Numbered from the stretch's first letter, positions 1 to 64,000 are shown. The stretch: 64,000 nt of DNA from the human T2T-CHM13v2.0 reference genome, Homo sapiens (GCA_009914755.4 CP086569.2:21888001-21952000); one strand, 5' to 3'. Numbers and translations are program-made. The notes: generated by a model from the letters alone, not told the origin.

Positions 1-1724
1 AAAATTTATATTCCCATGCCATCTTATAATGTTTTACTAAAAACATATTTACTTTCCTTGTACACATTGCATGTAAATTTACTTTCAGTAGTCTCAGTTA
101 TATGTTATAATGGTAACTCTTAGCAATTTTTAATTTTGATGTAAAACCTGATAAGTTACTTTAAGTATGTAGTAGATGCAGATAAGGCCAGACTATTTCC
201 AGCATAGTTAGGGTGTTGTTAACTTCATATGTCCCCAGGCCTTACCCAAACTGTAAAGAAAACAAGTTAAAAATTTTCAAAAGACAAAGAAGCCCCTTTG
301 ACCTCAAAGCACTTAGCAAACCTAGTTTCTGACCTGCATAATTTATACCACATGTGCACATTATGAGACATTCTTATTTTACCGATAATCTTAAATTCAA
401 AGATCAAAGTCATATGAGCTAAAAGCATTATAGCTTTATTTTCTTTAAAAATATTTTATTTAGGTTATTATTTTCTCCTTAAGCCAATCAATTAAAACTC
501 ATTTTAATATAAACATTATACATAGAACACACATATAACTACACAAACAGACAAGAGATAATACAGTCATTGCAAGACCTTTTTTTTATTGCCAATCTCC
601 TGAATGGACTACTGGTTACAGGGTGGATCTCTCCAAGAAACAAAAGCTGATTTTGAGAGGAATCTTCTCCTTTTAATTTCTGGGGTTCTGGAGTTCTATG
701 AAAAACACCCTCATGTGGCACCCTTTTGTCCAAAACTTTGGTTTGAAAACCTAAAAGGCAAAGCTGAATCTGAGTGACCCAGAGGCAGATGATGGTGTAG
801 GCCTCGGGCCACTTTCGTGGAACAAGAGGGACCAGGGAGATCTTTACTTTGAGGTAAAAGCAGGAGGATTAATGAGTGCACTCAGATGCAGTGGACTTAA
901 CATCCAAACACTGGGCCCAGAACAAAGACAGCACTTGACTTTTACATACATTTTAAAAGGGGGTGTGGGCTAGCTTGCAGTAGGCTTACAGTGGCATGAA
1001 AGCAAGCATACAGAAACAGAACAAAGACAGTTAATCAAATTGTGACAGTTTCATAACTCAGAATTACACATGACAGTTCCTAGGGAGAGAAAAGAAGTTT
1101 TGAAATTGGGGAACTGCCAAAAAAAACCCACCTGTACCCTCACATGGAAAAACTACGTTGAATCCTGACATGGTGGAGGAAAAAAGCACTTAACTGCAGG
1201 GGTGCTCTTCCAAGGCAGCCCCCTTTTTAGCAGCAGTCAGTATTTGATTAAAAGGTAATATAACATTCTTTCCAGGAGAGTTCAAATACTTAGATTAAAT
1301 TCTGGAAGGCTTCCATATACCTGTCAAGGTCATCTGAAAACTTGTTGAGTTCACACCTAATTTGCCTTAAGTCATATAGAGTAAAGGAGACCTTGATTTT
1401 AGTGGGTCCATATTCACCAGACATCTGTTGTAGGGACAGAAGACAAAGACCTGCCTAAAATGAGAATTTCTAGAATGGAACAAATTTGAGAGAAAACCTG
1501 AATAGGAAGGAATGGAGAGAGTTGACTACCCCACTGAAGGTACCTCTTGGGTTTGCTTCCCTAAGTCCCTGAATTTTTCCCTTGCAGCCTCTCCTGATGT
1601 GGCCACCAGGAGGGCCAAATTAATCCTACAATGTTGGCAAAGGTCTAGATAACCCTGCAAGGTAAAGAAAGTCTGCACGTATGGGATCTTGGACCATTTG
1701 CCTTCACATTTACAGAGAAAGTCC

Positions 1725-1890
1725 AGCTTCAGGATGGTATTTAAATTAATGCTTTTTTCCTGAGGTCTTACTTCTTTTCTGTGCCTGAAGGTGCTTGGCA
1801 ATATAGCTGCAGGATGGTATTGAAATTAATGCTTTTTTTCTTGAGGCCATGCTTCTTATCTGTGTCTGAAGGTGCTTGGAAAAATTTGAC
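1725..1890 (+). repeat. Local ~82-bp tandem duplication of two diverged copies; mirrored at about 48300-48460 in the right arm
   Basis: The sequence caggatggtatttaaattaatgctttttt...ctgaaggtgcttgg occurs twice in tandem. Confidence 0.6.
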
Positions 1891-2095
1891 AACCAAGGAA
1901 ATGACAAGAAAGTTTTCACCACAAACTTATGTATAAATACCAAGAAACACTTTTTTTAATCTGTGCTACTCTTAACCTTCCATTTTCTACTCCTGATGAC
2001 TAAACCAAATTCTCATTCTATCGGGTAATGTACCTGTGGTTTGCAACAACATTCTTAAGATTGTAGGTAGAGAAGAAAATCACAGCCACAGCAGT

Positions 2096-2226
2096 CAAGG
2101 AAGGAAAGAACGAAGGAAGGAAGGAAGGAAGAAGGTAGGAAGGAAAGAAGGAAGGAAGGAAGGAAGGAAGAAGGAAGGAAGGAAGGAAGGAAGGAAGGAA
2201 GGAAGGAAGGAGGGAAGGAAGAAAAT
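2096..2226 (+). repeat. (GGAA)n microsatellite
   Basis: Read directly. It is translated in the ORF track as GRKEGRKEG... (2036..2260) and in antisense as LPSFLPSF.... The mirrored copy is (TTCC)n at about 47957-48093 and is 12 bp (three units) shorter. Confidence 0.95.
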
Positions 2227-2949
2227 GGAGGGTGGGAGGGAGGTTAATAAAAAAGGCTGAAGGCAACAAGAAGGTGAGAAGGGCTGTGACCCTCTGGGGA
2301 GGGCCAACACATTGTATCAACACATTGAGGGGCTGTTTACTGGAGTCAGTCAAGGTATGGCCTTGGCCAGATGTATTCAGTTGCCCTAATACCTTATTCT
2401 GATTCCACACAATGGCTAGAACTCTGTAAAGGTAAACTGATTTGAAAAAAAGAGAAAAAAGCCAACATTCCCAACACCTGAGGGTTATGGGGGATTAACA
2501 GTGTTTTCCTCAGCAAGCCTGTCCTCCCTGTCTTAAGTCAGGCAGCTTTGCCAGTTGCTTTTAACTGACAAACAGAGGACCTGTATTTTTCTTTTATTTT
2601 TGGCTATTGTGATGTTTAGGACAGAAAGCAACAAGTTTGCTTTTATTTGCCATTCTACAAATCCCAGATGAGTCTGCCAAAGGATTTTTGGAGTGTTGCT
2701 TTATCATCTAGAAATCTCCGTGACTGGTGGTACCTTCTGCCTGAGTATCACTCAGGTACCTTCTGCCTGAGTATCACTCATGCCACTTGGCTTGTTCTGC
2801 CCATTAAGCCCAGCAGGCTGTGCTTAAGTTGCACTGCTGGCCCAGATTCCACACCTGCTACATCAATCCAGCCATGAAGTGGCAAGGGATATGTAAGTGA
2901 GCACACATGGGGTCCTGCTGTGGCAGGACAGGCAGCTCCTGGTGCTGGC

Positions 2950-4230
2950 ACATGTGCCAGCTCTGTGCAAGGCTGTAGCTACATGTATTTACATGTAGTT
3001 ACATGTATACTGCATGTAACTTTCACTGTGGGCACCCACGTTTAGACAAGGGGAACATGGCCACCAAAAGCTTGGAGATGCCAGAAACCACAGAGGCCAA
3101 AGAGATTTTACAGCCCTGGCTTGTGAAGACCCTTGGTCTGGGCTTCCCAGAGGGCCACCTATTTTCTCACCTTCTTGTTACCTGCAACATGGTGAGTGGA
3201 AGTGGATGTGTTTTAGTCATTTATGTTACAGCCGTTTTAATCCCACCACTCAGCGGGTCCCAGGTTCTTGTCCTGCATCCAGGAAGAGTAAGTAATGAGA
3301 ATAACTGGAGAGTGAGCAAGGCAGTGAGGAGATTCACTGAGTAATGGAACAACTCTCCAGAGACCTGAAATGGATAGTTTCTTTCAGCAGGCAGGTCATC
3401 CTGACAGGTGTCCAGCTCTCAGCAGAGAGGAGACCCACAATATGTATATCCTTTTGGTGGGCATATTGTCCCAATGTCTGTTCTAGTCTGGTGGAGTCTG
3501 GGGTTTTTATGGGCTCAGCATGGAGAAAGTGCATGCTGACTGGTCCATGGATGGTCATGGGTGGGCCCAGAAAAAGCATCATAAGTTCTCACTCTGGGTT
3601 GCTGACTCCACCCAAAGTTTATAAGTAAGCCCAACCCCCCACTTCAGGCTGTTCCTTGTTTGAAGGTGGAGTTTCACGGGAGATCCACTCCTTTCCACCC
3701 AGTAACCCGTCTGCCTCCCATCATGAACATACCATTCCCGCCATGCAGGCTGTTCATGCCAACAGGTGCTTGTAGACCCACACCAAGCTGCCCTTAGCCT
3801 CCCTGGACTCTCTCTCATGCTTGTCAGTGCCCAAAGTTTGGAGGGTGTTAAGGCTACAAGAGTCTAGCATGTCAGCACCACCCTGTGTGTGCAAACTTGG
3901 CCAGGTTATAATGGCACCCAGCCGCAGCCACAATTTTCCTCCAAAATCAGAGCAGACACCAGGAGTGGAGAAATGCCAGACAGTGGGAGCAGGCCCTACT
4001 GAACCTGCAGGAAAAAAGAGGGAAACCCTCATCCCTCAAGAGTACCTGGATTCCTGGATCTGGATCTGTGGCTGGACAGCTGCAGCTGTGCCCAGGAGCA
4101 TGGGACTTCCACCCCTCTAACTTGGTAAAAGGTGAGGTTCCCACATATCCTTGGCTCTCACTGGCTCCATGAAGCATGCAACCCCTGCCATACATCCTCA
4201 TGAAGCTGGTGCCTTCACATAAACAACACC
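2950..4230 (+). repeat. Unclassified low-copy segment 'X'; candidate old LTR or satellite-associated element
   Basis: Three copies in the window. Two are the identical arm copies at 2950-4230 and 45950-47240. The third is a ~70-75% identical copy at 58140-59400. Example of the homology: catgcactttctccatgctgagcccataaaaaccccagactc versus catgcactttctcctttctgagcccataaacaccccagactc. No coding signal. Confidence 0.5.
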
Positions 4231-4254
4231 ACATGGGCCACCACTGCCATCACT

Positions 4255-5605
4255 GGGTCCAGCAATATCTCACAACATCCCCTGAGTGGAGGGACCATGC
4301 AGATAGGTCACATTACCTAGGTAAACTCCTTACAGATATGACACAATGTCCTCCCTGGATAGGACCCAGAAAGAGGAGGAGAGTCACATATCTTAGGGGC
4401 TGGACCCAGCTCTATGCCACATTTTCCCACATGGGTGTGGCCCAGGCATGAGATGAGAATCATATAACCTATGTGCTAGGGTTGGCAATATGTCACAATA
4501 CTCCCTGAGTAAAGGGCTCAGGCATGAGAGCCACATCACCTAGGTGAAGGCTCAGAGATATGTCACTATGTACTCTGTGGGCAGGGCTTAATAAGAAACG
4601 GACAGTCACATATCCTAGGGGCTAGGCCAAACAACACGTTATGATCCCCACTGTGAACAAGTCCTAAAAAGGAAATGAGAGTCATACCATCTAGGAAATG
4701 ACCACACCAATAAGTGACAATGACCGCTGTGAGTAGGGACCAGGTGACATAGCACATCATCTGTGTGCAGGTCCCAGTGACAACTCATTGTCCTTTCCGT
4801 GGACATGGACTAAGCAACAGAGGAGAGTTGAATTATCTATCTAGGTGTTGGGCCAAGAGATATGTAACAATCTCTCCTATGGGGAAAGCCAAGTAAGAGA
4901 AAAGAGTTATGCCAAATAGTTTATGGGCCCAGGATATGTCACAATGCCCCATCTAAGCAGGGCCAGGCATCAGATTGACATTACCTTGGTGCTGAGCCCA
5001 CATATATGTCACATTGCAATCAGAGAATAGGTTCCAGAAACAAGAGTAATGGTACCTTTCAGTTGAGCCCAGTGATATGTCACTGTCTGTCCTTAGAACA
5101 GAACCTAGGAAGAAGTCACATCAGCTAGGTGTTTGGCCAAATATGTCACAATTTCCCCTAGGCAGAAGAAGACAGTCAGATCACCTGGGTGATGGGTGCA
5201 GAGCTATGCCATAATGCCCTCTGTATGCAGGGTTCAGGCAGGAGGGTTATATTGTCTCAGAGCTGGACCAAGCAATATGACACAGTGGCCCATGGTGGCA
5301 AGACCAGGCAGGAGACTTACATTATCTGGGTGTGGAATGCAGAGATATGTCAAAATTCCACCAGTGAAGAGCACCAAGGCAGGAGAGGAGACTCATATCA
5401 ACTAAAGAGTAAGCCCAGTGGTATGTCACAATGTCCTTTGTGGGCAATACCAACGAATAAAAACAGAGTCACATCCCCGAAGTGCTGGGCTCAGCGATTT
5501 GAAGCAAAACCATCTGTGGGCTTAGCCCACACAGGACACTCAAATCACTAAGGTGCTAGACAGAAGCATGTCACAATGGTACCTGCAGGAGGCTTTAAGT
5601 GATGG
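4255..5605 (+). repeat. Beta-satellite-like tandem array, ~68-70 bp monomer, about 20 monomers
   Basis: Periodic recurrence every ~68-70 bp of motifs such as cagagatatgtcacaatgcccc, gtcacatcacctaggtg, atatgtcacaattt and ggcaggag. My recollection of the Sau3A 68-bp beta satellite is that it has an ATATGTCACAATGCCCC-type core. The family assignment is from memory, not a database search. Confidence 0.65.
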
Positions 5606-6045
5606 TACTAATGATCCCACAAATGTCTTGATTTCATGCATGAGGGTGAATTTTCTTGTATGTTGGATCTAAGTATACTAGTCACAATCTCAATAGTGGA
5701 CTTAATCTGGCCATAAAAGCCTCAACCTCTCCTGCAGACTTTGTCTCCTTCAGGGAGCCACAGCCACACACAGCACACACAGTGTGCTGAATTTTTGTTT
5801 GAGGGTGACCAACCTAACCATGGACTGGAATGATGTATGAGAGTAAGTTTTTAAACTTTTGACTGCCTTTTGACTGCAAACTTTTGGCTGTTAGATATAA
5901 AACCTCATCAATGGGCCGCGTTCCCGTGGGAGAATGAAAATCTTTGCTGTTGGCTGGATGTGCATATGAATGCACAATTCCACCTGTGTGCTGGGTTCCA
6001 TAAACTTTCTACACTATCTGAAAGCTTTATACAATATAAATGAGA

Positions 6046-6383
<338 letters not shown>

Positions 6384-6693
6384 TTACTGGTATGGACACA
6401 TAAACTCAGCTGTGTCCAGCACAGATATGAGAGTCAACGTCTCTCCAATTGACTCGGTCCTCTCTCCAATTGACTTGGTCCAAATAAGAGGGTCTTTACC
6501 TGCCTGTGAGCTGGGTTTAGAAATAGGTTATATTTCAACTGTGGCTATATGTTCACATATGACAGTCACAGTTTTAACTGTGGACTCTTTCTGCATGTGA
6601 TATTCAGAACCCCCACAATGGATTGTGAGAATGACTATTATAATGCCAACTTTATCAGTTGGCAATGTGCAAACATAAGAAACCCGATTGTGG

Positions 6694-6818
6694 CCAGGTG
6701 CAGTGGCTCACATCTGTAATCTCAGCACTTTGGGAGGCTGAGGCTGGCAGAGCATCTGAGTTCAGGAGTTTGAGACCAGCCTGGCCAATATGGTAAAACC
6801 CCGCCTCTACTAAAAATC

Positions 6819-6866
<48 letters not shown>

Positions 6867-7040
6867 AGCCAGGCATTTTGGTGTATGGCTGCAATCCCAG
6901 CTACTTGCAAAGCTGAGGCAGGAGAATCACTTGCAACATGGGAGTCAGAGTTTGCAGTGACCTGAGGTCACACCATTGCACTCTAGCCTGGGTGATAAGA
7001 GTGAAACTCCATCTCAAAAAGGAAAAGAAAATAAAAGAAA
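6694..7040 (+). mobile_element. Alu with an expanded internal A-run of ~47 nt (6817-6863)
   Basis: The element reads ggccaggtgcagtggctcacatctgtaatctcagcactttgggaggctgagg ... poly(A) ... attagccaggc... Mirrored at 43168-43515(-), where the A/T run is 11 nt shorter. Confidence 0.9.
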
Positions 7041-7244
7041 AAACACAATCTCAACTACGCACCAGGATTCATGATGACACTCTCTGTACCAAATAAGAAC
7101 TTTATACTACGTACTAGAGAGTGGTAATCTTCTATGACCTTCATATATACATGCTCTCTGGTTATTTTCCAGACTTGTTGACCTCTCTTCATAGTGTTAT
7201 TGGTCTCCATATTTCCATTTTCTTTCCTCAGTGGCTGATACTGA

Positions 7245-7583
7245 TTAATCAGTAATCTCAGAACCTGTTTGGCATGTAGCATGCAGCATATGAGAATAAG
7301 TGTCTATTGTCAGTTCTGGGTCTAGCGTACCTTTAACTGTAGCAGTTTCTATGTGACCGACTACATTTACAACATAAGCTGAATTACAGACAATGTTGGT
7401 AGGATCTGCAGCTGTGAGCTGTAAAATCTGAATGACTGCAGTTAGCACTGAGAATTGAGCTGAAGCCCCAGAGGGCATTATTGTTTGAGTATGTTTAGGT
7501 CCATAGAGAGTGGCACGACCTTTAGAAGAGCCATCAGTAAAATAAGTCTGTCCACCTGGAATAGGCTTGTGATGAGTAATCAC
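7245..7583 (-). pseudogene. Retroviral RNase H domain remnant (ERVK pol)
   Basis: The translation PIPGGQTYFTDGSSKGRATLYGPKHTQTIMPSGASAQFSVLTAVIQILQL...NIVCNSAYVVNVVGHIETATVKG follows the betaretroviral RNase H pattern FTDGSS.GKA.Y.GPK....P..SAQ..EL.AV..VLQ...NI..DSAYVV....ETA.IK. Confidence 0.7.
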
Positions 7584-7787
7584 AGGAAGAATGAAAGAAT
7601 GGAATTCATAAAACTACAAAATTTTGTCTGAGGGATAATGAAAGCAAAGGTTTCTGCAGGTGTAGCTGGGAGGCATGCCATTGCTAAAGCATTTGTTCTA
7701 CAAGCTGCAACTCCAAATTCTGCCTCTTTGGCCAACTGCCATGGGAAATTTAGTGAAGAGTCTCCTGGCAGGGTTTAACCTTTCTTT

Positions 7788-8198
7788 CCAGTTATTGATA
7801 TTGGGTTAGGGTTTCCTTGTAGGAATTTCTCTAAATATTTTCCACTCTGATGTCCCATGTCCTTCAACATTTTAAATCCTAGGTTATCAAAGTTTTCATT
7901 TGTAAGTCTCATATCCCATGCTGTAAGTAAGTCTTGACCCCATAAATTGATAGCTATATTTGCAACATAAGGCTGAAAAGTACACCATTGTCCGTCTGGA
8001 CCAGGAAAAGGTAAAATCTCAGCACTCTGTTAAACACTTTGAGCTGTTCCTACTCCCGCTAAGGATGTAGAAGTTAATTGTAATGGCCAGGATGGGGGCC
8101 GATTGTCTTTAGATATTATTGACACATCAACTCCCGTATCCATAAGCCCCCAAATTTATTTCCTTTAATTTGCACTACACAGGTGGGCCTATCAGAGG
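7788..8198 (-). pseudogene. Retroviral aspartic protease remnant (ERVK pro); mirror of 42010-42420
   Basis: The right-arm translation GLMDTGVDVSIISKDNRPPSWPLQLTSTSLAGVGTAQSV...VANIAINLWGQDLLTAWDM has the DTG active site and resembles HERV-K protease (LIDTGADVTII...WP...L.G.GQS...NLWGRDLL). Confidence 0.65.
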
Positions 8199-8347
8199 CT
8201 ATCGGTTGGGATGGATAGATTTCCCATGTAGTTGTGCTGCTAAACCGTTTATTCTCTTGTTTCTCCTTTCATGGAGGAGGGTGTAATTTGCAGGGAATAA
8301 ACAATAATTGAGCAACATATTCTCCTGGTTCAAAAACCCAAAGATCT

Positions 8348-8940
8348 TGTTGTTGTACCCAAGCGAGTTAGAGGAACACCACACTTTGAGACAAATTTAA
8401 GAGTCCTTTATTAGCCAGTGAGAGAGAGACGGCTAACGTTTGGAATTCTCTTGGCCCCGAGGAAAAGGCTTGCTTTTCCTTTATACTTTGGTTTAGGAAG
8501 GGGAGGGGAGCTCAGTTGCAACAATTCTACAGAAGTGAAAACATGCGAAAAACTTAAAAAGACAAATGGTTACAGGGAAGACAACAGTTCCAGGTGCAGG
8601 GGCTCTAAATCTATCATAAGATGTTAGGTATGGGGGCTCTGCCAGACAGAAACTCAAGGCGTTATGGTGTTATCTCTTGAGCAAAATCCTGGGAACTTTG
8701 TACATTGCTTGCTTCAGTACCTTATCAGTTAATTGGACTCTTTGATATGTTGAGAGTCAGCTTACACAAGTGAACTCCTTGAGGAAGGGGGTGGGTAAGG
8801 AGTCCTTGACGTCTTGTAAATGAAGGAGCCAAATGGAGTTCATCAGGCTTTCTCAGTCAAGGGAGAGCTTATACATGTGGAAACAAGGCTAGGTGATTAA
8901 GGGAGAAAGGGAGAGTCTAAAAGCAAGGTTAGTAAAAACA
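8348..8940 (-). mobile_element. Solo-LTR-like insertion inside ERVK pro (mirror of 41268-41860); family not identified
   Basis: The right-arm copy begins tgtttttact and ends gggtaca. It has a TATA-like motif (gtataaagg, ~41713) and AATAAA (~41787). It sits in a ~700-bp gap that should be ~40 aa between dUTPase and protease. Confidence 0.4.
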
Positions 8941-10054
8941 AGGTTAGGTATTACACTATAATCAGCAATATAATTGTCAAGTAACATAATCAGTTAGGTA
9001 AGATTGTTAATGTTATGCTAGCATAATATTGATAGTGACAAAATCTTGAATTTAAAAATGTCAAAATCTTTCAATTTTTTTGAAGGGAAGACTTGCAATG
9101 CACCCTTAAAGTGAGATGTAACTTTTTTCTTATAGAAAAGTTAAAACAGGGTGGAGGAGCCAAGATGGCCAAATAGGAACAACTCCAGTCTACAGCTCCC
9201 AGCGTGAGTGATGCAGAAGATGGGTGATTTCTGCATTTCCATCTGAGGTACCGGGTTCATCTCACTAGGGAGTGCCAGACAGTGGGCACAGGTCAGTGGG
9301 TGCATACACTATTTGTGAGCCGAAGCAGGGCGAGGCATTGCCTCACTTGGGAAGCGCAAGGGGTCAGAGAGTTCCCTTTCCTAGTCAAAGAAAGGAGTGA
9401 TAGACAGCACCTGGAAAATCGGTCACTCCCACCCAAATACTGCACTTTTCCAAAGGGCTTAAAAAACGGCCCACCAGGAAATTATATCCCCAACATGGCT
9501 GGGAGGATCCTATACCCACGGAGTCTCTCTGCTTGCTAGCACAGCAGTATGAGATCAAACTGCAAGACAGCAGCGAGGCTGGGGGAGGGATGCCCGCCGT
9601 TGCCCAGGCTTGCTTAGGTAAACAAAGCAGCAGGGAAGCCCGAACTGGGTGGAGCCAACCACAGCTCAAGGAGGCCTGCCTGCCTCTGTAGGCTCCACCT
9701 CTGGGGGCAGGGCACAGACAAACAAAAAGACAGCAGTAACCTCTGCAGACTTAAATGGCGCTGTCTGACAGCTTTGAAGAGAGCAGTGGTTCTCCCAGCA
9801 TGAAGGTGGAGATCAGAGAATGCGCAGACTGCCTCCTCAAGTGAGTTCCTGACCCCGGACCCCGAGCAGCCTAACTGGGATGCACCCCCCAGCAGGGGCA
9901 GACTGACGCCACATGTGGTGGGGTACTCCAAGGGACCTGCAACTGAGGGTCCTGTCTGTTAGAAGGAAAACTAACAAACAGAAAGGACATCCACACCAAA
10001 AACCCATCTGTACATCACCATCATCAAAGACCAAATGTAGATAAAACCATGAAG

Positions 10055-11072
10055 ATGGGGAAAAAAACAGAACAGAAAAACTGGAAACTCTAAAATGCAG
10101 AGCAACTCTCCTCCTCTAAAGGAGTGCAGTTCCTCACCAGCAATGGAACAAAGCTCAACAAAGAATGACTTTGACGAGCTGAGAGAAGAAATGTTCAGAT
10201 GATCAAACTACTCTGAGCTATGGAAGGACATTCAAACCAAAGGCAAAGAAGTTGAAAACTTTGAAAAAAATTCAGAAGAATGTACAACTAGAATAACCAA
10301 TACAGAGAAGTTCTTAAAGGAGCTGATGGAGCTGAAAACCAAGGCTCCAGAACTACTAGAAGAATGCAGAAGCCTCAGGAGCCAATGCGATCAACTGGAA
10401 GAAAGGGTATCAGCGATGGAAGATGAAATGAATGAAAGGAAGTGAGAAGGGAAGTTTAGAGAAAAAAGAATAGAAAGAAATGAGCAAAGCCTCCAAGAAA
10501 TATGGGACTATGTGAAAAGACCAAATCTATGTCTGATTGGTGTACCTGAAAGTGATGGGGAGAATGGAACCAAGTTGGAAAACACTCTGCAGGATATTAT
10601 CCAGGAGAACTTCCCCAATCTAGCAAGGCAGGCCAACGTTCAGATTCAGGAAATACAGAGAACGCCACAAAGATACTCCTCGAGAAGAGCAACTCCAAGA
10701 CACATAATTGTCAGATGCACCAAAGTTGAAAAGAAGGAAAAAATGTTAAGGGCAGCCAGAGAGAAAGGTCGGGTTACCCTCAAAGGGAAGCCCATCAGAC
10801 TAACAGCGGATCTCTCGGCAGAAACCCTACAAGCCAGAAGAGAGTGGGGGTCAATATTCAACATTCTTAAAGAAAAGAATTCTCAACCCAGAATTTCATA
10901 TCCAGCCAAACTAAGCTTCATAAGTGAAGGAGAAGTAAAATACTTTACAGACAAGCAAATGCTGAGAGATTTTGTCACCACCAGGCCTGCCCTAAAAGAG
11001 CTCCTGAAGGAAGTGCTAAACATGGAAAGGAACAACCGCTACCAGCCACTGCAAAATCATGCCAAAATGTAA
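10055..11072 (+). pseudogene. L1 ORF1p remnant with a premature stop
   Basis: Its translation matches L1 ORF1p: ...RPNLCLIGVPESDGENGTKLENTLQDIIQENFPNLARQANVQIQEIQRTPQRYSSRRATPRHIIVR... Confidence 0.9.
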
Positions 11073-11135
11073 AGACCATCGAGACTAGGAAGAAACTGCA
11101 TCAACTAACGAGCAAAATAACCAGCTAACATCGTA

Positions 11136-14970
<3,835 letters not shown>

Positions 14971-15269
14971 AACAATGAGAACACATGGACACAGGAAGGG
15001 GAACATCACACTCTGGGGACTGTTGTGTGGTGGGGGGAGGGGGGAGGGATGGCATTGGGAGATATACCTAATGCTAGATGATGAGTTAATGGGTGCAGCG
15101 CACCAGCAAGGCACATGTATACATATGTAACTAACCTGCACATTGTGCACATGTACCCTAAAACTTAAAGTATAATTATAACAAATTAAAAAAGGAAAAG
15201 TTAAAACAATGAGTGTATTTGGTTCAATAAATATATCTTTCTGTATTTTATAATTTTATTTAAAAATAT

Positions 15270-43378: not shown

Positions 43379-43515
43379 GATTTTTAGTAGAGGCGGGGTT
43401 TTACCATATTGGCCAGGCTGGTCTCAAACTCCTGAACTCAGATGCTCTGCCAGCCTCAGCCTCCCAAAGTGCTGAGATTACAGATGTGAGCCACTGCACC
43501 TGGCCACAATCGGGT
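43168..43515 (-). mobile_element. Alu, right-arm mirror
   Basis: Reverse-complement of 6694-7040. Confidence 0.9.
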
Positions 43516-43813
43516 TTCTTATGTTTGCACATTGCCAACTGATAAAGTTGGCATTATAATAGTCATTCTCACAATCCATTGTGGGGGTTCTGAATATCAC
43601 ATGCAGAAAGAGTCCACAGTTAAAACTGTGACTGTCATATGTGAACATATAGCCACAGTTGAAATATAACCTATTTCTAAACCCAGCTCACAGGCAGGTA
43701 AAGACCCTCTTATTTGGACCAAGTCAATTGGAGAGAGGACCGAGTCAATTGGAGAGACGTTGACTCTCATATCTGTGCTGGACACAGCTGAGTTTATGTG
43801 TCCATACCAGTAA

Positions 43814-44152
<339 letters not shown>

Positions 44153-44584
44153 CTCATTTATATTGTATAAAGCTTTCAGATAGTGTAGAAAGTTTATGGA
44201 ACCCAGCACACAGGTGGAATTGTGCATTCATATGCACATCCAGCCAACAGCAAAGATTTTCATTCTCCCACGGGAACGCGGCCCATTGATGAGGTTTTAT
44301 ATCTAACAGCCAAAAGTTTGCAGTCAAAAGGCAGTCAAAAGTTTAAAAACTTACTCTCATACATCATTCCAGTCCATGGTTAGGTTGGTCACCCTCAAAC
44401 AAAAATTCAGCACACTGTGTGTGCTGTGTGTGGCTGTGGCTCCCTGAAGGAGACAAAGTCTGCAGGAGAGGTTGAGGCTTTTATGGCCAGATTAAGTCCA
44501 CTATTGAGATTGTGACTAGTATACTTAGATCCAACATACAAGAAAATTCACCCTCATGCATGAAATCAAGACATTTGTGGGATC

Positions 44585-45945
44585 ATTAGTACCATCACTT
44601 AAAGCCTCCTGCAGGTACCATTGTGACATGCTTCTGTCTAGCACCTTAGTGATTTGAGTGTCCTGTGTGGGCTAAGCCCACAGATGGTTTTGCTTCAAAT
44701 CGCTGAGCCCAGCACTTCGGGGATGTGACTCTGTTTTTATTCGTTGGTATTGCCCACAAAGGACATTGTGACATACCACTGGGCTTACTCTTTAGTTGAT
44801 ATGAGTCTCCTCTCCTGCCTTGGTGCTCTTCACTGGTGGAATTTTGACATATCTCTGCATTCCACACCCAGATAATGTAAGTCTCCTGCCTGGTCTTGCC
44901 ACCATGGGCCACTGTGTCATATTGCTTGGTCCAGCTCTGAGACAATATAACCCTCCTGCCTGAACCCTGCATACAGAGGGCATTATGGCATAGCTCTGCA
45001 CCCATCACCCAGGTGATCTGACTGTCTTCTTCTGCCTAGGGGAAATTGTGACATATTTGGCCAAACACCTAGCTGATGTGACTTCTTCCTAGGTTCTGTT
45101 CTAAGGACAGACAGTGACATATCACTGGGCTCAACTGAAAGGTACCATTACTCTTGTTTCTGGAACCTATTCTCTGATTGCAATGTGACATATATGTGGG
45201 CTCAGCACCAAGGTAATGTCAATCTGATGCCTGGCCCTGCTTAGATGGGGCATTGTGACATATCCTGGGCCCATAAACTATTTGGCATAACTCTTTTCTC
45301 TTACTTGGCTTTCCCCATAGGAGAGATTGTTACATATCTCTTGGCCCAACACCTAGATAGATAATTCAACTCTCCTCTGTTGCTTAGTCCATGTCCACGG
45401 AAAGGACAATGAGTTGTCACTGGGACCTGCACACAGATGATGTGCTATGTCACCTGGTCCCTACTCACAGCGGTCATTGTCACTTATTGGTGTGGTCATT
45501 TCCTAGATGGTATGACTCTCATTTCCTTTTTAGGACTTGTTCACAGTGGGGATCATAACGTGTTGTTTGGCCTAGCCCCTAGGATATGTGACTGTCCGTT
45601 TCTTATTAAGCCCTGCCCACAGAGTACATAGTGACATATCTCTGAGCCTTCACCTAGGTGATGTGGCTCTCATGCCTGAGCCCTTTACTCAGGGAGTATT
45701 GTGACATATTGCCAACCCTAGCACATAGGTTATATGATTCTCATCTCATGCCTGGGCCACACCCATGTGGGAAAATGTGGCATAGAGCTGGGTCCAGCCC
45801 CTAAGATATGTGACTCTCCTCCTCTTTCTGGGTCCTATCCAGGGAGGACATTGTGTCATATCTGTAAGGAGTTTACCTAGGTAATGTGACCTATCTGCAT
45901 GGTCCCTCCACTCAGGGGATGTTGTGAGATATTGCTGGACCCAGT
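44585..45945 (-). repeat. Beta-satellite-like tandem array; right-arm mirror of 4255-5605
   Basis: Reverse-complement of the left-arm array. ORF twins are identical, for example 4176..4451(+) with 45746..46021(-). Confidence 0.65.
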
Positions 45946-47956
45946 GATGGCAGTGGTGGCCCATGTGGTGTTGTTTATGTGAAGGCACCAGCTTCATGAG
46001 GATGTATGGCAGGGGTTGCATGCTTCATGGAGCCAGTGAGAGCCAAGGATATGTGGGAACCTCACCTTTTACCAAGTTAGAGGGGTGGAAGTCCCATGCT
46101 CCTGGGCACAGCTGCAGCTGTCCAGCCACAGATCCAGATCCAGGAATCCAGGTACTCTTGAGGGATGAGGGTTTCCCTCTTTTTTCCTGCAGGTTCAGTA
46201 GGGCCTGCTCCCACTGTCTGGCATTTCTCCACTCCTGGTGTCTGCTCTGATTTTGGAGGAAAATTGTGGCTGCGGCTGGGTGCCATTATAACCTGGCCAA
46301 GTTTGCACACACAGGGTGGTGCTGACATGCTAGACTCTTGTAGCCTTAACACCCTCCAAACTTTGGGCACTGACAAGCATGAGAGAGAGTCCAGGGAGGC
46401 TAAGGGCAGCTTGGTGTGGGTCTACAAGCACCTGTTGGCATGAACAGCCTGCATGGCGGGAATGGTATGTTCATGATGGGAGGCAGACGGGTTACTGGGT
46501 GGAAAGGAGTGGATCTCCCGTGAAACTCCACCTTCAAACAAGGAACAGCCTGAAGTGGGGGGTTGGGCTTACTTATAAACTTTGGGTGGAGTCAGCAACC
46601 CAGAGTGAGAACTTATGATGCTTTTTCTGGGCCCACCCATGACCATCCATGGACCAGTCAGCATGCACTTTCTCCATGCTGAGCCCATAAAAACCCCAGA
46701 CTCCACCAGACTAGAACAGACATTGGGACAATATGCCCACCAAAAGGATATACATATTGTGGGTCTCCTCTCTGCTGAGAGCTGGACACCTGTCAGGATG
46801 ACCTGCCTGCTGAAAGAAACTATCCATTTCAGGTCTCTGGAGAGTTGTTCCATTACTCAGTGAATCTCCTCACTGCCTTGCTCACTCTCCAGTTATTCTC
46901 ATTACTTACTCTTCCTGGATGCAGGACAAGAACCTGGGACCCGCTGAGTGGTGGGATTAAAACGGCTGTAACATAAATGACTAAAACACATCCACTTCCA
47001 CTCACCATGTTGCAGGTAACAAGAAGGTGAGAAAATAGGTGGCCCTCTGGGAAGCCCAGACCAAGGGTCTTCACAAGCCAGGGCTGTAAAATCTCTTTGG
47101 CCTCTGTGGTTTCTGGCATCTCCAAGCTTTTGGTGGCCATGTTCCCCTTGTCTAAACGTGGGTGCCCACAGTGAAAGTTACATGCAGTATACATGTAACT
47201 ACATGTAAATACATGTAGCTACAGCCTTGCACAGAGCTGGCACATGTGCCAGCACCAGGAGCTGCCTGTCCTGCCACAGCAGGACCCCATGTGTGCTCAC
47301 TTACATATCCCTTGCCACTTCATGGCTGGATTGATGTAGCAGGTGTGGAATCTGGGCCAGCAGTGCAACTTAAGCACAGCCTGCTGGGCTTAATGGGCAG
47401 AACAAGCCAAGTGGCATGAGTGATACTCAGGCAGAAGGTACCTGAGTGATACTCAGGCAGAAGGTACCACCAGTCACGGAGATTTCTAGATGATAAAGCA
47501 ACACTCCAAAAATCCTTTGGCAGACTCATCTGGGATTTGTAGAATGGCAAATAAAAGCAAACTTGTTGCTTTCTGTCCTAAACATCACAATAGCCAAAAA
47601 TAAAAGAAAAATACAGGTCCTCTGTTTGTCAGTTAAAAGCAACTGGCAAAGCTGCCTGACTTAAGACAGGGAGGACAGGCTTGCTGAGGAAAACACTGTT
47701 AATCCCCCATAACCCTCAGGTGTTGGGAATGTTGGCTTTTTTCTCTTTTTTTCAAATCAGTTTACCTTTACAGAGTTCTAGCCATTGTGTGGAATCAGAA
47801 TAAGGTATTAGGGCAACTGAATACATCTGGCCAAGGCCATACCTTGACTGACTCCAGTAAACAGCCCCTCAATGTGTTGATACAATGTGTTGGCCCTCCC
47901 CAGAGGGTCACAGCCCTTCTCACCTTCTTGTTGCCTTCAGCCTTTTTTATTAACCT

Positions 47957-48093
47957 CCCTCCCACCCTCCATTTTCTTCCTTCCCTCCTTCCTTCCTTCC
48001 TTCCTTCCTTCCTTCCTTCTTCCTTCCTTCCTTCCTTCCTTCCTTCCTACCTTCTTCCTTCCTTCCTTCCTTCGTTCTTTCCTTCCTTGACTG
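47957..48093 (-). repeat. (GGAA)n microsatellite, right-arm copy, read as TTCC on the + strand
   Basis: Read directly; 12 bp shorter than the left-arm copy. Confidence 0.95.
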
Positions 48094-50565
48094 CTGTGGC
48101 TGTGATTTTCTTCTCTACCTACAATCTTAAGAATGTTGTTGCAAACCACAGGTACATTACCCGATAGAATGAGAATTTGGTTTAGTCATCAGGAGTAGAA
48201 AATGGAAGGTTAAGAGTAGCACAGATTAAAAAAAGTGTTTCTTGGTATTTATACATAAGTTTGTGGTGAAAACTTTCTTGTCATTTCCTTGGTTGTCAAA
48301 TTTTTCCAAGCACCTTCAGACACAGATAAGAAGCATGGCCTCAAGAAAAAAGCATTAATTTCAATACCATCCTGCAGCTATATTGCCAAGCACCTTCAGG
48401 CACAGAAAAGAAGTAAGACCTCAGGAAAAAAGCATTAATTTAAATACCATCCTGAAGCTGGACTTTCTCTGTAAATGTGAAGGCAAATGGTCCAAGATCC
48501 CATACGTGCAGACTTTCTTTACCTTGCAGGGTTATCTAGACCTTTGCCAACATTGTAGGATTAATTTGGCCCTCCTGGTGGCCACATCAGGAGAGGCTGC
48601 AAGGGAAAAATTCAGGGACTTAGGGAAGCAAACCCAAGAGGTACCTTCAGTGGGGTAGTCAACTCTCTCCATTCCTTCCTATTCAGGTTTTCTCTCAAAT
48701 TTGTTCCATTCTAGAAATTCTCATTTTAGGCAGGTCTTTGTCTTCTGTCCCTACAACAGATGTCTGGTGAATATGGACCCACTAAAATCAAGGTCTCCTT
48801 TACTCTATATGACTTAAGGCAAATTAGGTGTGAACTCAACAAGTTTTCAGATGACCTTGACAGGTATATGGAAGCCTTCCAGAATTTAATCTAAGTATTT
48901 GAACTCTCCTGGAAAGAATGTTATATTACCTTTTAATCAAATACTGACTGCTGCTAAAAAGGGGGCTGCCTTGGAAGAGCACCCCTGCAGTTAAGTGCTT
49001 TTTTCCTCCACCATGTCAGGATTCAACGTAGTTTTTCCATGTGAGGGTACAGGTGGGTTTTTTTTGGCAGTTCCCCAATTTCAAAACTTCTTTTCTCTCC
49101 CTAGGAACTGTCATGTGTAATTCTGAGTTATGAAACTGTCACAATTTGATTAACTGTCTTTGTTCTGTTTCTGTATGCTTGCTTTCATGCCACTGTAAGC
49201 CTACTGCAAGCTAGCCCACACCCCCTTTTAAAATGTATGTAAAAGTCAAGTGCTGTCTTTGTTCTGGGCCCAGTGTTTGGATGTTAAGTCCACTGCATCT
49301 GAGTGCACTCATTAATCCTCCTGCTTTTACCTCAAAGTAAAGATCTCCCTGGTCCCTCTTGTTCCACGAAAGTGGCCCGAGGCCTACACCATCATCTGCC
49401 TCTGGGTCACTCAGATTCAGCTTTGCCTTTTAGGTTTTCAAACCAAAGTTTTGGACAAAAGGGTGCCACATGAGGGTGTTTTTCATAGAACTCCAGAACC
49501 CCAGAAATTAAAAGGAGAAGATTCCTCTCAAAATCAGCTTTTGTTTCTTGGAGAGATCCACCCTGTAACCAGTAGTCCATTCAGGAGATTGGCAATAAAA
49601 AAAAGGTCTTGCAATGACTGTATTATCTCTTGTCTGTTTGTGTAGTTATATGTGTGTTCTATGTATAATGTTTATATTAAAATGAGTTTTAATTGATTGG
49701 CTTAAGGAGAAAATAATAACCTAAATAAAATATTTTTAAAGAAAATAAAGCTATAATGCTTTTAGCTCATATGACTTTGATCTTTGAATTTAAGATTATC
49801 GGTAAAATAAGAATGTCTCATAATGTGCACATGTGGTATAAATTATGCAGGTCAGAAACTAGGTTTGCTAAGTGCTTTGAGGTCAAAGGGGCTTCTTTGT
49901 CTTTTGAAAATTTTTAACTTGTTTTCTTTACAGTTTGGGTAAGGCCTGGGGACATATGAAGTTAACAACACCCTAACTATGCTGGAAATAGTCTGGCCTT
50001 ATCTGCATCTACTACATACTTAAAGTAACTTATCAGGTTTTACATCAAAATTAAAAATTGCTAAGAGTTACCATTATAACATATAACTGAGACTACTGAA
50101 AGTAAATTTACATGCAATGTGTACAAGGAAAGTAAATATGTTTTTAGTAAAACATTATAAGATGGCATGGGAATATAAATTTTTGCCTAGTTTGAAGCTA
50201 AAGGATTATGTTAAATTAGATAAGATAAAGCAAAAGTGAAAACAAGTAGTGGATGGCTTGTAAAACTTAATCTTGTAAAATAAATTATGTGTATAAACAT
50301 ACTGACTAAATTCAAAAAGATATTATTTGGTTTTCCCATACATTGAACATTGGAAGCCAAGCATTTCTTATTGCACTGATCTGCTTTTTAACGAATATTT
50401 CTACAGGTTTATAAAAGGCTTGTAAGAATTTCACCTCACTGTCAAACGGATAAAAATTGAATACATTTGCATATAACGTTTCATTTAAAAAAATGGGATG
50501 ACATGAATAATAGACTAATGGATGGATAAAATTTTGTTCTCTCTCAGCAATATTTTCATGTAATG

Positions 50566-50880
50566 TTAACACCTGTAATCCCAACACTTTGGGAGGCCGA
50601 GGTGGGCAGATCACCTGAGGTTGGGAGTCTGAGACCAGTCTGGCCAATATGGTGAAACCTCATCTCTAATGAAAGTACAAAAATTAGCCAGGCATGGCGG
50701 TGGTCACCTGTAGTCTCAGCTACTCAGGAGGCTGAGGCAGGAGAATTGCTTGAACCCAGGAAGTGAAGATTACAGTGAGCCAAGATCATGCCACTGCACT
50801 CCAGCCTGGGTGACAGAGAGAGATCCTGTCTCAAAAATAAATAAGTAAATAAATATATAAATAATAAAAAATTTTTGTTT
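50566..50880 (+). mobile_element. Alu, 5'-truncated
   Basis: The element reads cctgtaatcccaacactttgggaggccgaggtgggcagatcacctgagg...gcctgggtgacagagagagatcctgtctcaaaaa. Confidence 0.9.
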
Positions 50881-50993
50881 GCTTTGTGAACAGACTATCA
50901 AGAAGTGAAGAAAAAAACAAGAGACAGATCATTTGGAAAGCTCACTCTTCCCTTTAATAAGTAAAGGGTTTTGTCTTTTAAAAAAAACTGAGC

Positions 50994-57012
<6,019 letters not shown>

Positions 57013-60144: not shown

Positions 60145-61924
60145 GCTTTGGCATCCCTCAAGGTGCATTAGAACATATCACTGGGTCAAACACCCAGGTG
60201 ACGTAACACTTCTGTCTTAACCCTGCCTACAGGACCCATTGTGACATTCCTCTATACCTATCAAACAAGTTAGGTGACTCTCCTCTTCTGCTGGGTCTCT
60301 GCTCAAACGGGGCAGTGTGACATATCATTGGATCCAGCACCTAGCTGTTGTGACTAATTTTTTTATTGTTCCATCACGGGAGAGACTGTGAAATATCACT
60401 AGTCTAAACACCAAAATGGCACTATTCTTTTGCCTTGGTCCTAAATTCTAAAGACATTGCAACATATTGCTAAACCCAGTACTAAGTGGATATAAGTCTC
60501 CTGTCTGAAACCTGCCCACAGGGGGCATTAAAACACATCTTTAGGCCTATCAACTCTTTCATGTGAATCTTCTTTCTTACCTCAACTTTGCCCATATGGG
60601 AGATTGTAATATATCTCTGGGTCCATCAACTTTTTATGTGACTCTTCTGTCTCGTGTTCTCCCTGCCCACAGGGATTATTGTGACATATATCCAGGCCCA
60701 TCACCTGATTATGTCTCTCCTCCTTTTGCTGGGATTTACCCACAGTTGGGATTGTAACATATAACTTATCTAAACACCTACCCACTGTGGTGATTCTGAG
60801 ACATAACTTGGTTCAGCCATGAAGTTATGTGACTCTCCTCCTCTTTCTGAGTCCTTTGCATGGCAAGCATTGTGATAAATTTCTGAGTCCTTCATGTAAA
60901 TTTTGTTAATCTTCTCTCTGGGCCCTTCTCTCAGGGATGGTTGCAATATATTGCTGCACCCAGCAATTAGTTCATGTGACTCTTCTCTATTGCTTAACCT
61001 TCCCATAAAAGGGATTGTGGCCTATCACTGGGTCCAATGCCTAGTTGGTGCAATTGCCTTCATCTGCCCTGCCCACAGCGGTATTATGACATATCATTTT
61101 GTTCCTCACCTAGGTGATGTGACTCTCTACTGCATAAACCCTGCCAAACAGGGAGGTTGTAACATATCACTAGACCCAGAACTTAAGTGACAGTATTAGC
61201 GTTCTCTAAAAGGTCAGAACCAACAAGATAGATGTGTATATGAAGGGGAGTTTGTTAGGAGTATTGGCTCACACAGTCACAAGGGGAAGTCTCACAATAG
61301 GCCGTCTGCAAGCTAAGCAGCAGGAAAGCCAGTCCAAGTCACAGAACCTCAAAAGTAGGGAAGCTAACAGTGCAGCCTTCAGTCTGTGGCTAAAGGCCTG
61401 AGAGCCTCTAGCAAACCAGTAATTTAATTCCAGGAGTTGAAAGTCTGAAGAACTTGGAGTCTGATGTTCAGGCAGGAAGCATCCAAGAAGAGAGAAAGGC
61501 AAAGACTGGAAGACTCAACAAGCCAAATCCTTCTAACTTCTGCCTGCTTTTATTCTAGTCATGCTGGCAGCTGATTAGATGGTGTCCACCCAGATTGAGG
61601 ATAGGTCTGCCTCTTCCAGTGCACTGACTCAAATACTAATCTCATTTGGCAACGCCTTCACAGAAACACCCAGGATCAATACTTTTCACCCCTCAATTCA
61701 ATCATATTGACATTCAGTATTAACCATCACAGTGACATAACTCTCTTTTTATCCTGCGTCCCATATTTTGATTATTTTGACATGTTTCTGAGCCAATCTC
61801 CTAGAAGATAAAAGACTCTGCCTTGGCCATGCCACAGAGGGTCTTGTGATGTATCCCTGTACCCATCTACCCAGCACCTGACTGATACAACTCTACTGTC
61901 TGGGCTTAGCCCACATATGACATT

Positions 61925-62225
<301 letters not shown>

Positions 62226-64000
62226 CTGGCCCACATATGGTATTCTTATAGATCACTGGACAGAGCACCTAGAATATATGACTGTATTCTACATTGGTGC
62301 TATTCACAGACGGCATTTTTATATATTGATGAGCACCACACCCAGATTATGTGACTCTCCTGCCTGTTCTCTGTACACATGGGCCAGTGTGACATATTGC
62401 TAGGTTCAACTTCCAGGTAATGTAATTCTGCTCCCTGGTTCTGCCTACAGGGGATATTGAAAGATGTGTCACCCACCAAGTTAGTGATGTGACGTTCTTT
62501 TTTCTGCCTGGTTCCTGCTTAGACTGGAGATTTTCATTTACTGCTGAACCTAGAATCTAGATGATGTGATTCTTCTATTCTTTATAGGTTCTGTCCCCAA
62601 AGAAGATTGTGACATACTGACAACACCAAGGTGATTACTGTTTTGTCTTGGCCCTTCCCTTAGAAGGCATTGTTACATATTGCTGGCCACGTAAGCAAAA
62701 TGATATGAGCCCCTTTCTAGACAATGCACACATGTGACATTTTAACATACCTCTAGGCACATCAACTATTTGATGTGACTCTCCCCTCTTATCTAGGCTT
62801 TGCCCATAGTTGTGATTGTGACATATTTATGGACCCAGCATCTAGTTAACATGACTCTCCACTCCAGCATAAGCCGTGTTCACAAAAGAAACATCACTGA
62901 GCTCAGCACACAGGTGATGTGACTCCTCTGCCTGGTTCTGGATCACAGAAGTCATGACCTATCTTTGGGCCAATAACCTACAAGATATGACCCCTTGCTT
63001 CTTTCTGGGGCCTCTTCATAGTGGAGTTTGTAACATACTGGTTGATGTAATATCGACATAATGTGACTCTCCTCTTATGCCTGGGCCATGCCCACTATGG
63101 TGATTGTGGCATACATTTGGACCCAGCCACTAAGTTATGTGATTCTTTTTTTTCTCTTCGAGCCCAACCCACAAAAGCCACTGTGACATATCTCTGAGAC
63201 TCTCACATACATGATGTGACTTTCTCACCTGGATTCTCCCTTCATGGGGTATTGTGACATATTGCTGGACCCGACACCTAGATGATGTGACTCTCCTATA
63301 TAACTTGGGCCCCACATTCATTGTGTATTTTGACATATTCCTGGGACTTATCCCTAGGTGGTGCAACCTTATTGCATGGGTGTGGTTCACAGAGATATTA
63401 TGATATATCACTGTGGCTCTCCTCTCTTATCTGTGCTGACTAAAAAAAGGAATTGTGACATACAAGTAAACCCAGCACCTAGATGTGACTCTCCTGTTTT
63501 ACTTGGATCATGTATATTTTGCATATTGTGTCATATTGCTATACTAGACACTTTGGGAATGGGAGGCTCTTTCCTGAGCCCTGTGACATATCTCTGCATT
63601 CATGACTTAGGTTATGTGACTCACCTTTTCTACATTCACCATATCCACAGGAAATATTGTCACATTTTGTTGGGTCCAGCAACCAAGTAATTTGTCTCTC
63701 CTGCTTTTGTCCTGTTTTCAGAAAAGGTTTGTAAAATATTCTTGTCTGAGCACCCAGAAGATATAACTCTCCTTGCTGGTCCCTGTCCTAAGCAAAAATT
63801 GTAACATATCCCTGGCCCAGCGCCTAGAGAGCGTGACTCACCTGAGATTGTAAGATATACCTCAACACAGGTAAAATGATGACTCTCAAGCCTTGAACCA
63901 TCAAAAACAAGAGACACTGTCTCTCATGGCAAGGCTTAGGGATACACTAATTTGTGTACAAAACTCATAGGGGATTACTACTCTCTCATATATCACGTAA

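Follow-up and report, generated by a model that had tools for sequence, protein, structure and literature searches.

The 64,000-nucleotide stretch of the human telomere-to-telomere (T2T) reference genome T2T-CHM13v2.0 analysed in this study (GCA_009914755.4, CP086569.2:21888001-21952000; hereafter the window, with positions counted from its first letter) contains a genuine large palindrome, i.e. an inverted segmental duplication of a known kind, whose arms of at least 8.95 kb flank a spacer of 32.3 kb. The left arm was copied from the right arm, and the arm homology ends at the terminus of a long terminal repeat (LTR)-like element that splits the dUTPase gene of an old ERVK element. The palindrome probably corresponds to chrY Q4 of the bonobo, and its arms have probably been kept nearly identical by gene conversion. 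We give a probability of roughly 0.62 to this reading taken jointly, i.e. to a genuine palindrome that matches bonobo Q4, has its source in the right arm and is maintained by conversion.

When the window was compared by BLAST with its own reverse complement, one inverted match dominated: positions 1-8955 are the reverse complement of 41253-50183, with 99.72% identity over 8,955 alignment columns when gaps are counted. This value lies above the ~98% that the original prediction had set as its own lower limit. The remaining inverted and direct matches (76-95% identity) represent ordinary dispersed repeats. Base-by-base alignment of the arms revealed two substitutions in ~8,930 aligned bases (0.022%), i.e. 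99.98% identity, together with three length differences in low-complexity runs, which makes five differences in total. The visible arms measure 8,955 bp (left) and 8,931 bp (right); the left arm is truncated by the window edge, as had been predicted, since the arm homology reaches base 1, and 8.95 kb is therefore a minimum arm length. Homology ends sharply at 8955/8956 and 41253/41252; further into the spacer the alignment is random, and a sensitive BLAST search past the arm ends found no arm homology within the window beyond 8955 or 41253. The G+C content of the visible arms is 0.434 versus 0.417 for the spacer. The parts of the palindrome and the differences between its arms are as follows.

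1-8955: left arm (the part within the window), the copied and derived arm, recognised by its reverse-complement match and by a spacer-side flank without the other half of the ERVK element.
41253-50183: right arm (the part with a partner in the window), the source arm, recognised by an ERVK element that runs unbroken from the spacer into the arm.
8956-41252: spacer, 32,297 bp.
1833: 1-bp indel in a T run.
2146 (48039 in the right arm): A/G substitution within a (GGAA)n run.
2166-2177: 12-bp indel in (GGAA)n.
6820-6864: 11-bp indel in poly(A), A45 versus A34.
8857 (T) and 41351 (C): T/C substitution located 99 bp from the inner edge; no other substitution lies outside a microsatellite.

Large primate palindromes are defined by arms of at least 8 kb, an identity of at least 98-99% and a spacer of no more than 500 kb, and the structure described here falls within all of these values. 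Satellite and simple repeats account for ~1.7 kb (beta-satellite-like) and ~0.2 kb (simple) of the 8.95-kb arm, against a ceiling of <80% in the same definition. Both self-BLAST and base alignment thus bear out the claim of a large near-identical palindrome in the window, whose arms measure at least 8.95 kb and whose spacer measures 32.3 kb. The original prediction had placed the arms at 1-8955 and 41254-50183, which is correct except for the start of the right arm, at 41253. It had also stated that every long open reading frame (ORF) in one arm has an identical twin in the other; this is true of 35 stop-to-stop ORFs with a length of 60 aa or more, but those overlapping the indels differ. Similarly, the (GGAA)n and A-run length differences, given as the only ones, are both present, but a third indel (the 1-bp T run) and the two substitutions had been missed. 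These inaccuracies are small and the reading as a palindrome is unchanged.

The polarity of the duplication follows from the elements lying at the two inner boundaries.

33266-33790, plus strand: ERVK capsid (CA) domain (Gag_p24, E=1.2e-27, followed by sub-threshold Gag_p24_C matches).
40563-41252, plus strand: ERVK gag zinc knuckle and N-terminal dUTPase half, the spacer-side flank of the right arm.
41253-41867, plus strand: right-arm copy of the LTR-like element, an insertion splitting the ERVK dUTPase gene.
7030-8340, minus strand (twin at ~41868-43170, plus strand): C-terminal dUTPase half, protease and weak RNase H of ERVK, with the reverse transcriptase missing.
8341-8955, minus strand: LTR-like element of ~603-609 bp in a 615-bp interval; the inner boundary of the left arm coincides with its 5' terminus.
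9153-15199, plus strand: full-length L1 with an RVT_1 domain, 197 bp from the left junction and flanked by a 14-bp target-site duplication, GAAAAGTTAAAACA.

Across the right boundary the order is collinear: capsid, a nested provirus, zinc knuckle, N-terminal dUTPase half, LTR-like insert, C-terminal dUTPase half, protease and weak RNase H. The N-terminal half was recognised by Pfam with E=2.3e-14 (profile positions 2-83 of 129; E=8e-13 in a second scan), and the translation of 40563-41252 contains the zinc knuckle motif CGKAGQFKKEC. The dUTPase frame resumes in the arm directly after the LTR-like element. Excision of 41253-41861 in silico lengthened the dUTPase match in a single frame: it covered profile positions 2-81 before (52.0 bits) and 2-118 of 129 afterwards (63.5 bits, E=2.2e-17). 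Further into the arm, the retroviral fragment matches the Pfam protease domain RVP with E=7.5e-15, while its RNase_H match is sub-threshold (E=0.002, 18.6 bits versus a Pfam cut-off of 25.8). In betaretroviruses the dUTPase sits within pro, and the order of domains found here makes ERVK, or betaretrovirus-like, a reasonable assignment for the element crossing the right boundary. The capsid domain at 33266-33790, upstream of the nested provirus, probably comes from the same element.

Since a single old ERVK element, into which a solo LTR is inserted, spans the boundary between the right arm and the spacer, the right junction is ancestral. In the left flank, 197 bp of AT-rich sequence lead to the full-length L1, and a Pfam scan of this junction found nothing of the ERVK element and no N-terminal dUTPase half on the spacer side. 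At the left inner junction the first base of the LTR-like element is joined to unrelated AT-rich sequence. Because the ERVK element is continuous at the right junction only, it is the right arm that served as the source and the left arm that was derived from it.

The arm homology stops at the first base of the LTR-like element. This element starts with TG, ends at one of several CA in ...GGGTACAACAACA, and contains a TATA-like box followed by AATAAA. An inner boundary placed exactly at the terminus of an LTR that splits an ERVK dUTPase gene is a detail that goes beyond the palindrome catalogue considered below. The best candidate for a target-site duplication generated by the LTR insertion agrees at 4/6 bases (TCACGA vs ACAAGA) and is unconvincing. 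A BLAST search of the window found no second, independent copy of the LTR-like element. The possibility that the left flank represents the internal 3' end of a provirus, which could likewise account for a boundary at the LTR edge, was also considered and rejected, as no polypurine tract precedes the LTR on the left side.

We compared the palindrome with the catalogue of X and Y palindromes of six apes by Makova et al. 2024 (Nature 630:401; PMC11168930, Supplementary Data 3), which has no human rows. The comparison is one of numbers (arm lengths, spacer, identity and G+C content), not of sequence. The relevant entries (all from PMC11168930) are listed below beside the palindrome of this study, with G+C content given as arm/spacer.

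This window: arms at least 8,955/8,931 bp, spacer 32,297 bp, identity 99.72% with gaps, G+C 0.424 (predicted 15.7-kb arm)/0.417.
Bonobo mPanPan1.chrY.Q4 (mPanPan1 chrY 11,631,017-11,694,708): arms 15,679/15,675 bp, spacer 32,337 bp, identity 99.7, G+C 0.42/0.42.
Gorilla chrY Q13: arms 15,709/15,693 bp, spacer 32,216 bp, identity 98.5, G+C 0.42/0.42.
Bornean orangutan chrY Q4: arms 31,931/31,986 bp, spacer 31,654 bp, identity 98.5, G+C 0.42/0.46.
Sumatran orangutan chrY Q4: arms 31,956/31,944 bp, spacer 31,658 bp, identity 98.7, G+C 0.42/0.46.

The spacer in the window is 40 bp shorter than that of bonobo Q4, a difference that could be due to trimming of the boundaries by the detection software, and the identity and both G+C values agree after rounding. 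Only five entries of the catalogue have spacers of 30-35 kb (the bonobo, gorilla and two orangutan entries are four of these), and a match within 40 bp by chance therefore has a likelihood of ~1-2%. The arm lengths are compatible as well: the arms differ by 24 bp in the window and by 4 bp in bonobo Q4, which implies ~20 more gap columns in the outer part, and the resulting ~46 differences in 15.7 kb amount to 99.7% identity overall, so that the numbers are self-consistent with the bonobo entry. Taking these values together, we put at roughly three in four the chance that the palindrome corresponds to bonobo chrY Q4, and it has thus probably already been catalogued. According to the sequence-class file, bonobo Q4 and gorilla Q13 each lie exactly on a border between the 'ancestral' and 'ampliconic' classes, and this shared position supports their orthology. 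Gorilla Q13 is likely to be the orthologue of bonobo Q4, as judged by geometry and class borders rather than by alignment, and orangutan Q4 is, by its geometry, a possible counterpart.

The bonobo arm length also permits a prediction of where the right arm ends.

50184-56967: putative continuation of the right arm, deduced from the bonobo Q4 arm length of 15,675-15,679 bp, with a partner expected outside the window on the left.
50997-57012, plus strand: full-length L1 flanked by the target-site duplication CTGAGCCA.

The predicted outer end falls at ~56,947-56,967, i.e. 45-65 bp before the poly(A) of this L1, and the G+C content of 41253-56947 is 0.424 versus 0.42 in the catalogue. If the match to bonobo Q4 holds, the outer boundary probably also lies at the end of a dispersed repeat, namely the L1 3' end.

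The original prediction attributed the near-identity of the arms either to a very recent inverted duplication or to ongoing gene conversion. This pair of alternatives stands, and it is the geometry shared with ape Y chromosomes that tips the balance towards conversion. The two cannot be separated from the window alone. At the Y mutation rate of 8.88e-10 per year (PMC11168930), two substitutions in 8,930 bp would take 126 thousand years (15-456) to accumulate, and at 0.5e-9 per year 224 thousand years (27-809). An inverted duplication within the last ~0.02-0.8 million years would account for these figures with no need for gene conversion. The remaining arm differences lie in fast-mutating runs and the arms show exactly the source and copy polarity that a simple duplication leaves, both of which agree with a recent event, as does the lack of a listed counterpart on the chimpanzee Y, many ape Y palindromes having been published as lineage-specific. 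What makes a recent event unlikely in our view is the gorilla Y entry, with nearly the same arm and spacer lengths and the same type of position, together with the orangutan Y entries with the same spacer size: independent origins with such geometry are improbable. The location of the only clean substitution, 99 bp from the inner edge, is also not predicted by uniform mutation.

Should the bonobo and gorilla entries be orthologues, the palindrome is older than the split between Pan and gorilla. Over 7 million years ~111 substitutions would be expected in 8,930 bp without conversion, versus the two observed, and with orthology this excess of expected (>100) over observed substitutions therefore favours gene conversion over recent duplication. 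The arms would then have been kept nearly identical by intrachromosomal arm-to-arm gene conversion, as in primate Y and X palindromes, and their near-identity would not be the trace of a duplication within the last few hundred thousand years. We consider maintenance by gene conversion somewhat better than an even bet. The T/C site at 8857 lies in an edge zone holding ~1.1% of arm positions, a location that fits poorer conversion at the end of homology, where conversion tracts arrive least frequently, or a chimeric LTR. In ape X and Y palindromes the G+C content of the arms exceeds that of the spacers, which has been attributed to biased gene conversion; the difference between arms and spacer observed here has the reported direction but is confounded by transposon content.

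Several points weigh against maintenance by conversion of an old palindrome shared among apes. The two substitutions by themselves are compatible, at the Y rate, with an age of 15-456 thousand years for the duplication, and the edge effect is that of one substitution. The correspondence with bonobo Q4 is a match of numbers with a spacer that is 40 bp off. That the bonobo, gorilla and orangutan entries are orthologous is a deduction from their geometry and class borders rather than from alignments, and the gorilla and orangutan identities of 98.5-98.7% probably count gaps, so that they are unusable as substitution divergence. The chimpanzee Y has no such entry (PMC11168930) and the human Y was reported to contain only P1-P8 (T2T-Y paper); the structure is therefore not uniformly kept across species. 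As for its origin, no second, independent LTR that could have anchored the copy is visible in the window, and the position of the boundary near some transposon edge could be a coincidence.

The junctions nevertheless offer an indication of how the left arm may have arisen. The copying of the right arm might have proceeded by homology-directed repair or replication (break-induced replication, synthesis-dependent strand annealing or template switching), and, more speculatively, an inverted LTR of the same family may have pre-existed at the left site and anchored the copy. Anchoring within the LTR would explain why the homology stops exactly at the LTR terminus. The chance that a duplication boundary falls within ~1 base of a transposon terminus in such repeat-dense sequence is, by a rough and uncomputed guess, 1-2%. 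It is a tentative and rather doubtful proposal that we are dealing with the birth scar of a Y palindrome at base-pair resolution, in which the copied segment was delimited by an LTR 5' terminus on the inner side and, should the catalogue arm length hold, by an L1 3' end on the outer side, originated by ectopic repeat-anchored repair or replication, and was subsequently maintained by conversion, without genes, for millions of years. Instead of LTR-anchored copying, the left junction may have been shaped by rearrangement of the inner arm and spacer at a later time; these regions are known as rearrangement hotspots of X palindromes (PMC8327919).

It is very improbable that one arm is a false duplicate produced by the assembly, through a fold-back or chimeric read or a mis-join. 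Palindromes are known to be hard to assemble, and the near-perfect identity, with differences mostly in homopolymers and microsatellites, resembles what consensus errors would leave. The copies, however, lie 32.3 kb apart and have two different clean junctions, one ancestral and one novel, whereas fold-back chimeras have no such spacer; moreover, two true base differences distinguish the arms, and a full-length L1 with its own target-site duplication lies in ordinary sequence 197 bp from the left junction. None of the marks of an assembly fold-back (abutting arms, a lack of independent junctions, a lack of base differences) was found, and, if the catalogue match holds, three independent T2T assemblies share the same geometry.

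An RNA-mediated origin was considered as well. In this scenario the L1 at 50997-57012 supplied both the poly(A) signal that terminated a ~15.7-kb read-through transcript and the machinery that retrotransposed it as a very long 5' transduction, in inverted orientation 32 kb upstream, and the copy was later homogenised. Such an origin would suit the common strand of the LTR-like element, the ERVK part and the L1 in the right arm and (if the catalogue arm length applies) an arm that ends 45-65 bp before the L1 poly(A) and leaves out the L1 3' flank past the target-site duplication, but it is highly unlikely, because the copy starts at the first base of U3, unlike an RNA driven by an LTR, the poly(A) tail and target-site duplication that it requires would have to lie beyond the window, at the outer end of the left arm, the estimate of the outer boundary hangs on the unproven catalogue match, and 15.7 kb is, to our knowledge, far beyond the length of known L1-mediated copies.

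The visible arms consist of transposable elements and diverged beta-satellite-like repeats, with no apparent protein-coding gene, and the palindrome thus appears as a gene-less structural feature. Besides the ERVK part and the LTR-like element, they contain the following components.

2097-2225, plus strand (twin at 47976-48088): (GGAA)n microsatellite, whose two copies differ by 12 bp in length and at one A/G site.
~3900-5600, plus strand (twin at 44580-46290, minus strand): degenerate beta-satellite-like array of 66-78-bp monomers.
6051-6343 and 6692-7020, plus strand: two old Alus, the second with an expanded A45 linker whose length differs between the arms.

The array at ~3900-5600 gave autocorrelation peaks at 71-76 bp, and its monomers were aligned to derive a consensus; Tandem Repeats Finder did not detect it, the monomers being too diverged. 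The consensus resembles that of beta satellite (the 68-bp Sau3A family), to which the array may belong. The two Alus are 77-83% identical to an AluY consensus by BLAST. The description of the arms as a mixture of beta-satellite, Alus and ERVK of different ages therefore holds for the Alus, which are old, and reasonably, by its domains, for ERVK, while the satellite is a degenerate array that Tandem Repeats Finder does not see. To the right of the L1, at 60150-64000, there is a further beta-satellite-like repeat of 71-76 bp in the same orientation as the right-arm copy, which suggests that the two once formed a longer array, later split by transposons. Both arms also carry the same perfect tandem duplication of a 26-bp unit (two copies) at 2729-2780 (twin at 47417-47468).

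Pfam searches of the arms covered the ERV part (6990-8500 and the junction), using translations in which stops were replaced by X, and found retroviral domains only. A 931-aa concatenation of the longest non-repeat arm ORFs had no homologue in a protein homology search of 5.8 billion proteins, and an exact look-up of one arm ORF returned no record in public assemblies. Rfam, at gathering thresholds, detected no RNA family in the whole window. Testis-expressed multicopy arm genes, which are typical of sex-chromosome palindromes but not obligatory, were not found in the visible 8.95 kb.

The spacer has its own history of insertions. The backbone of its left two-thirds is an old AT-rich degenerate tandem array at 15213-17640, 27023-27760, 28650-31400 and 32906-33180, with a period of ~175-182 bp and units 65-73% alike, which is interrupted by L1, Alus and a provirus and is unlike alpha satellite. 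Its proviruses are listed below.

17698-27025, plus strand: class I (ERV1) provirus of full length, whose ~500-bp LTRs share 88% identity.
34008-40562, plus strand: internally deleted ERV1 provirus, nested in ERVK gag between the capsid and the zinc knuckle.

The first provirus encodes RNase H and gamma-type envelope domains, while its integrase match is sub-threshold (29.3 bits versus a cut-off of 32.6). Its plus strand is strongly C-rich (GC skew about -0.34), and its LTR resembles LTR7/HERV-H. The second provirus is flanked by LTR12-like repeats with tandem CCAAT-box motifs of 24-41-bp period, and an envelope transmembrane motif is visible in its translation. Between the two proviruses lies an L1 3' fragment (31456-32907) whose segment 31456-32306 is inverted relative to the adjoining 32304-32907, a twin-priming pattern. 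A perfect tandem duplication of a 34-bp unit (2.1 copies) was found within a spacer Alu at 16588-16657.

The full-length L1s at 9153 and 50997 are in direct orientation, 42 kb apart and 93% identical. They were considered as a possible part of the repeat structure and rejected, since each has its own target-site duplication; the 14-bp duplication likewise identifies the L1 at 9153-15199 as an unrelated, independent insertion. Such a direct pair could mediate deletion of the spacer and right arm.

Large sex-chromosome palindromes are homogenised by gene conversion and are associated with spacer inversions, isodicentric chromosomes and deletions. The palindrome of this study is one more instance, probably catalogued already, and leaves the overall picture of primate palindromes unchanged. 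Its presence in both bonobo and gorilla, if real, would argue that gene conversion by itself suffices to preserve arm identity, with no need for selection on genes in the arms. The anatomy of its junctions, with a recognisable source arm and a boundary at an LTR terminus, provides a lead, and a lead only, on the birth of palindromes, for which published data are thin.

Among known systems, the X palindromes are the first to be considered. According to Jackson et al. 2021 (PMC8327919), they have arms of >8 kb, identity >99% and spacers from 77 bp to 358 kb, and even those with spacers of up to 358 kb keep an identity >99%. They have persisted for millions of years through gene conversion, their structural changes cluster at the inner arms and spacer, and 21/26 have protein-coding arm genes (PMC8327919). 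The palindrome described here falls under the same operational definition, but differs in that no gene is detectable in its visible 8.95 kb.

With the palindromes P1-P8 of the human male-specific region of the Y chromosome it shares inverted arms (there ~99.97-99.98% identical) around a unique spacer, and with P7 also the lack of a visible gene. Skaletsky et al. and Rozen et al. are said to have described P7 in 2003 as having arms of ~8.7 kb, a spacer of ~12.6 kb and no known gene. The palindrome is not one of P1-P8, whose arm and spacer sizes do not fit and which are reported to be the only ones on the human T2T-Y. P4-P8 are nested in X-degenerate sequence (T2T-Y paper). Gene conversion has been demonstrated for P1-P8, whereas here it is deduced.

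A boundary at a dispersed repeat, with homology ending at the repeat edge, is also a feature of repeat-bounded duplications. Bailey, Liu and Eichler reportedly found in 2003 that segmental duplication boundaries are enriched in Alu, and Carvalho et al. are said to have proposed in 2011 the DUP-TRP/INV-DUP model of inverted duplication mediated by inverted repeats. In the present case the repeat is an LTR and not an Alu or a low-copy repeat, and the copy of the repeat that such a model requires at the recipient site was not observed. The closest known structure is bonobo chrY Q4, which is alike in spacer, identity and G+C content and has a compatible arm length; the catalogue gives no anatomy, and the junction analysis is added here. 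The type of palindrome is itself already known, and to it the present study adds the polarity of the arms, an inner boundary at an LTR terminus and an outer boundary probably at the 3' end of an L1.

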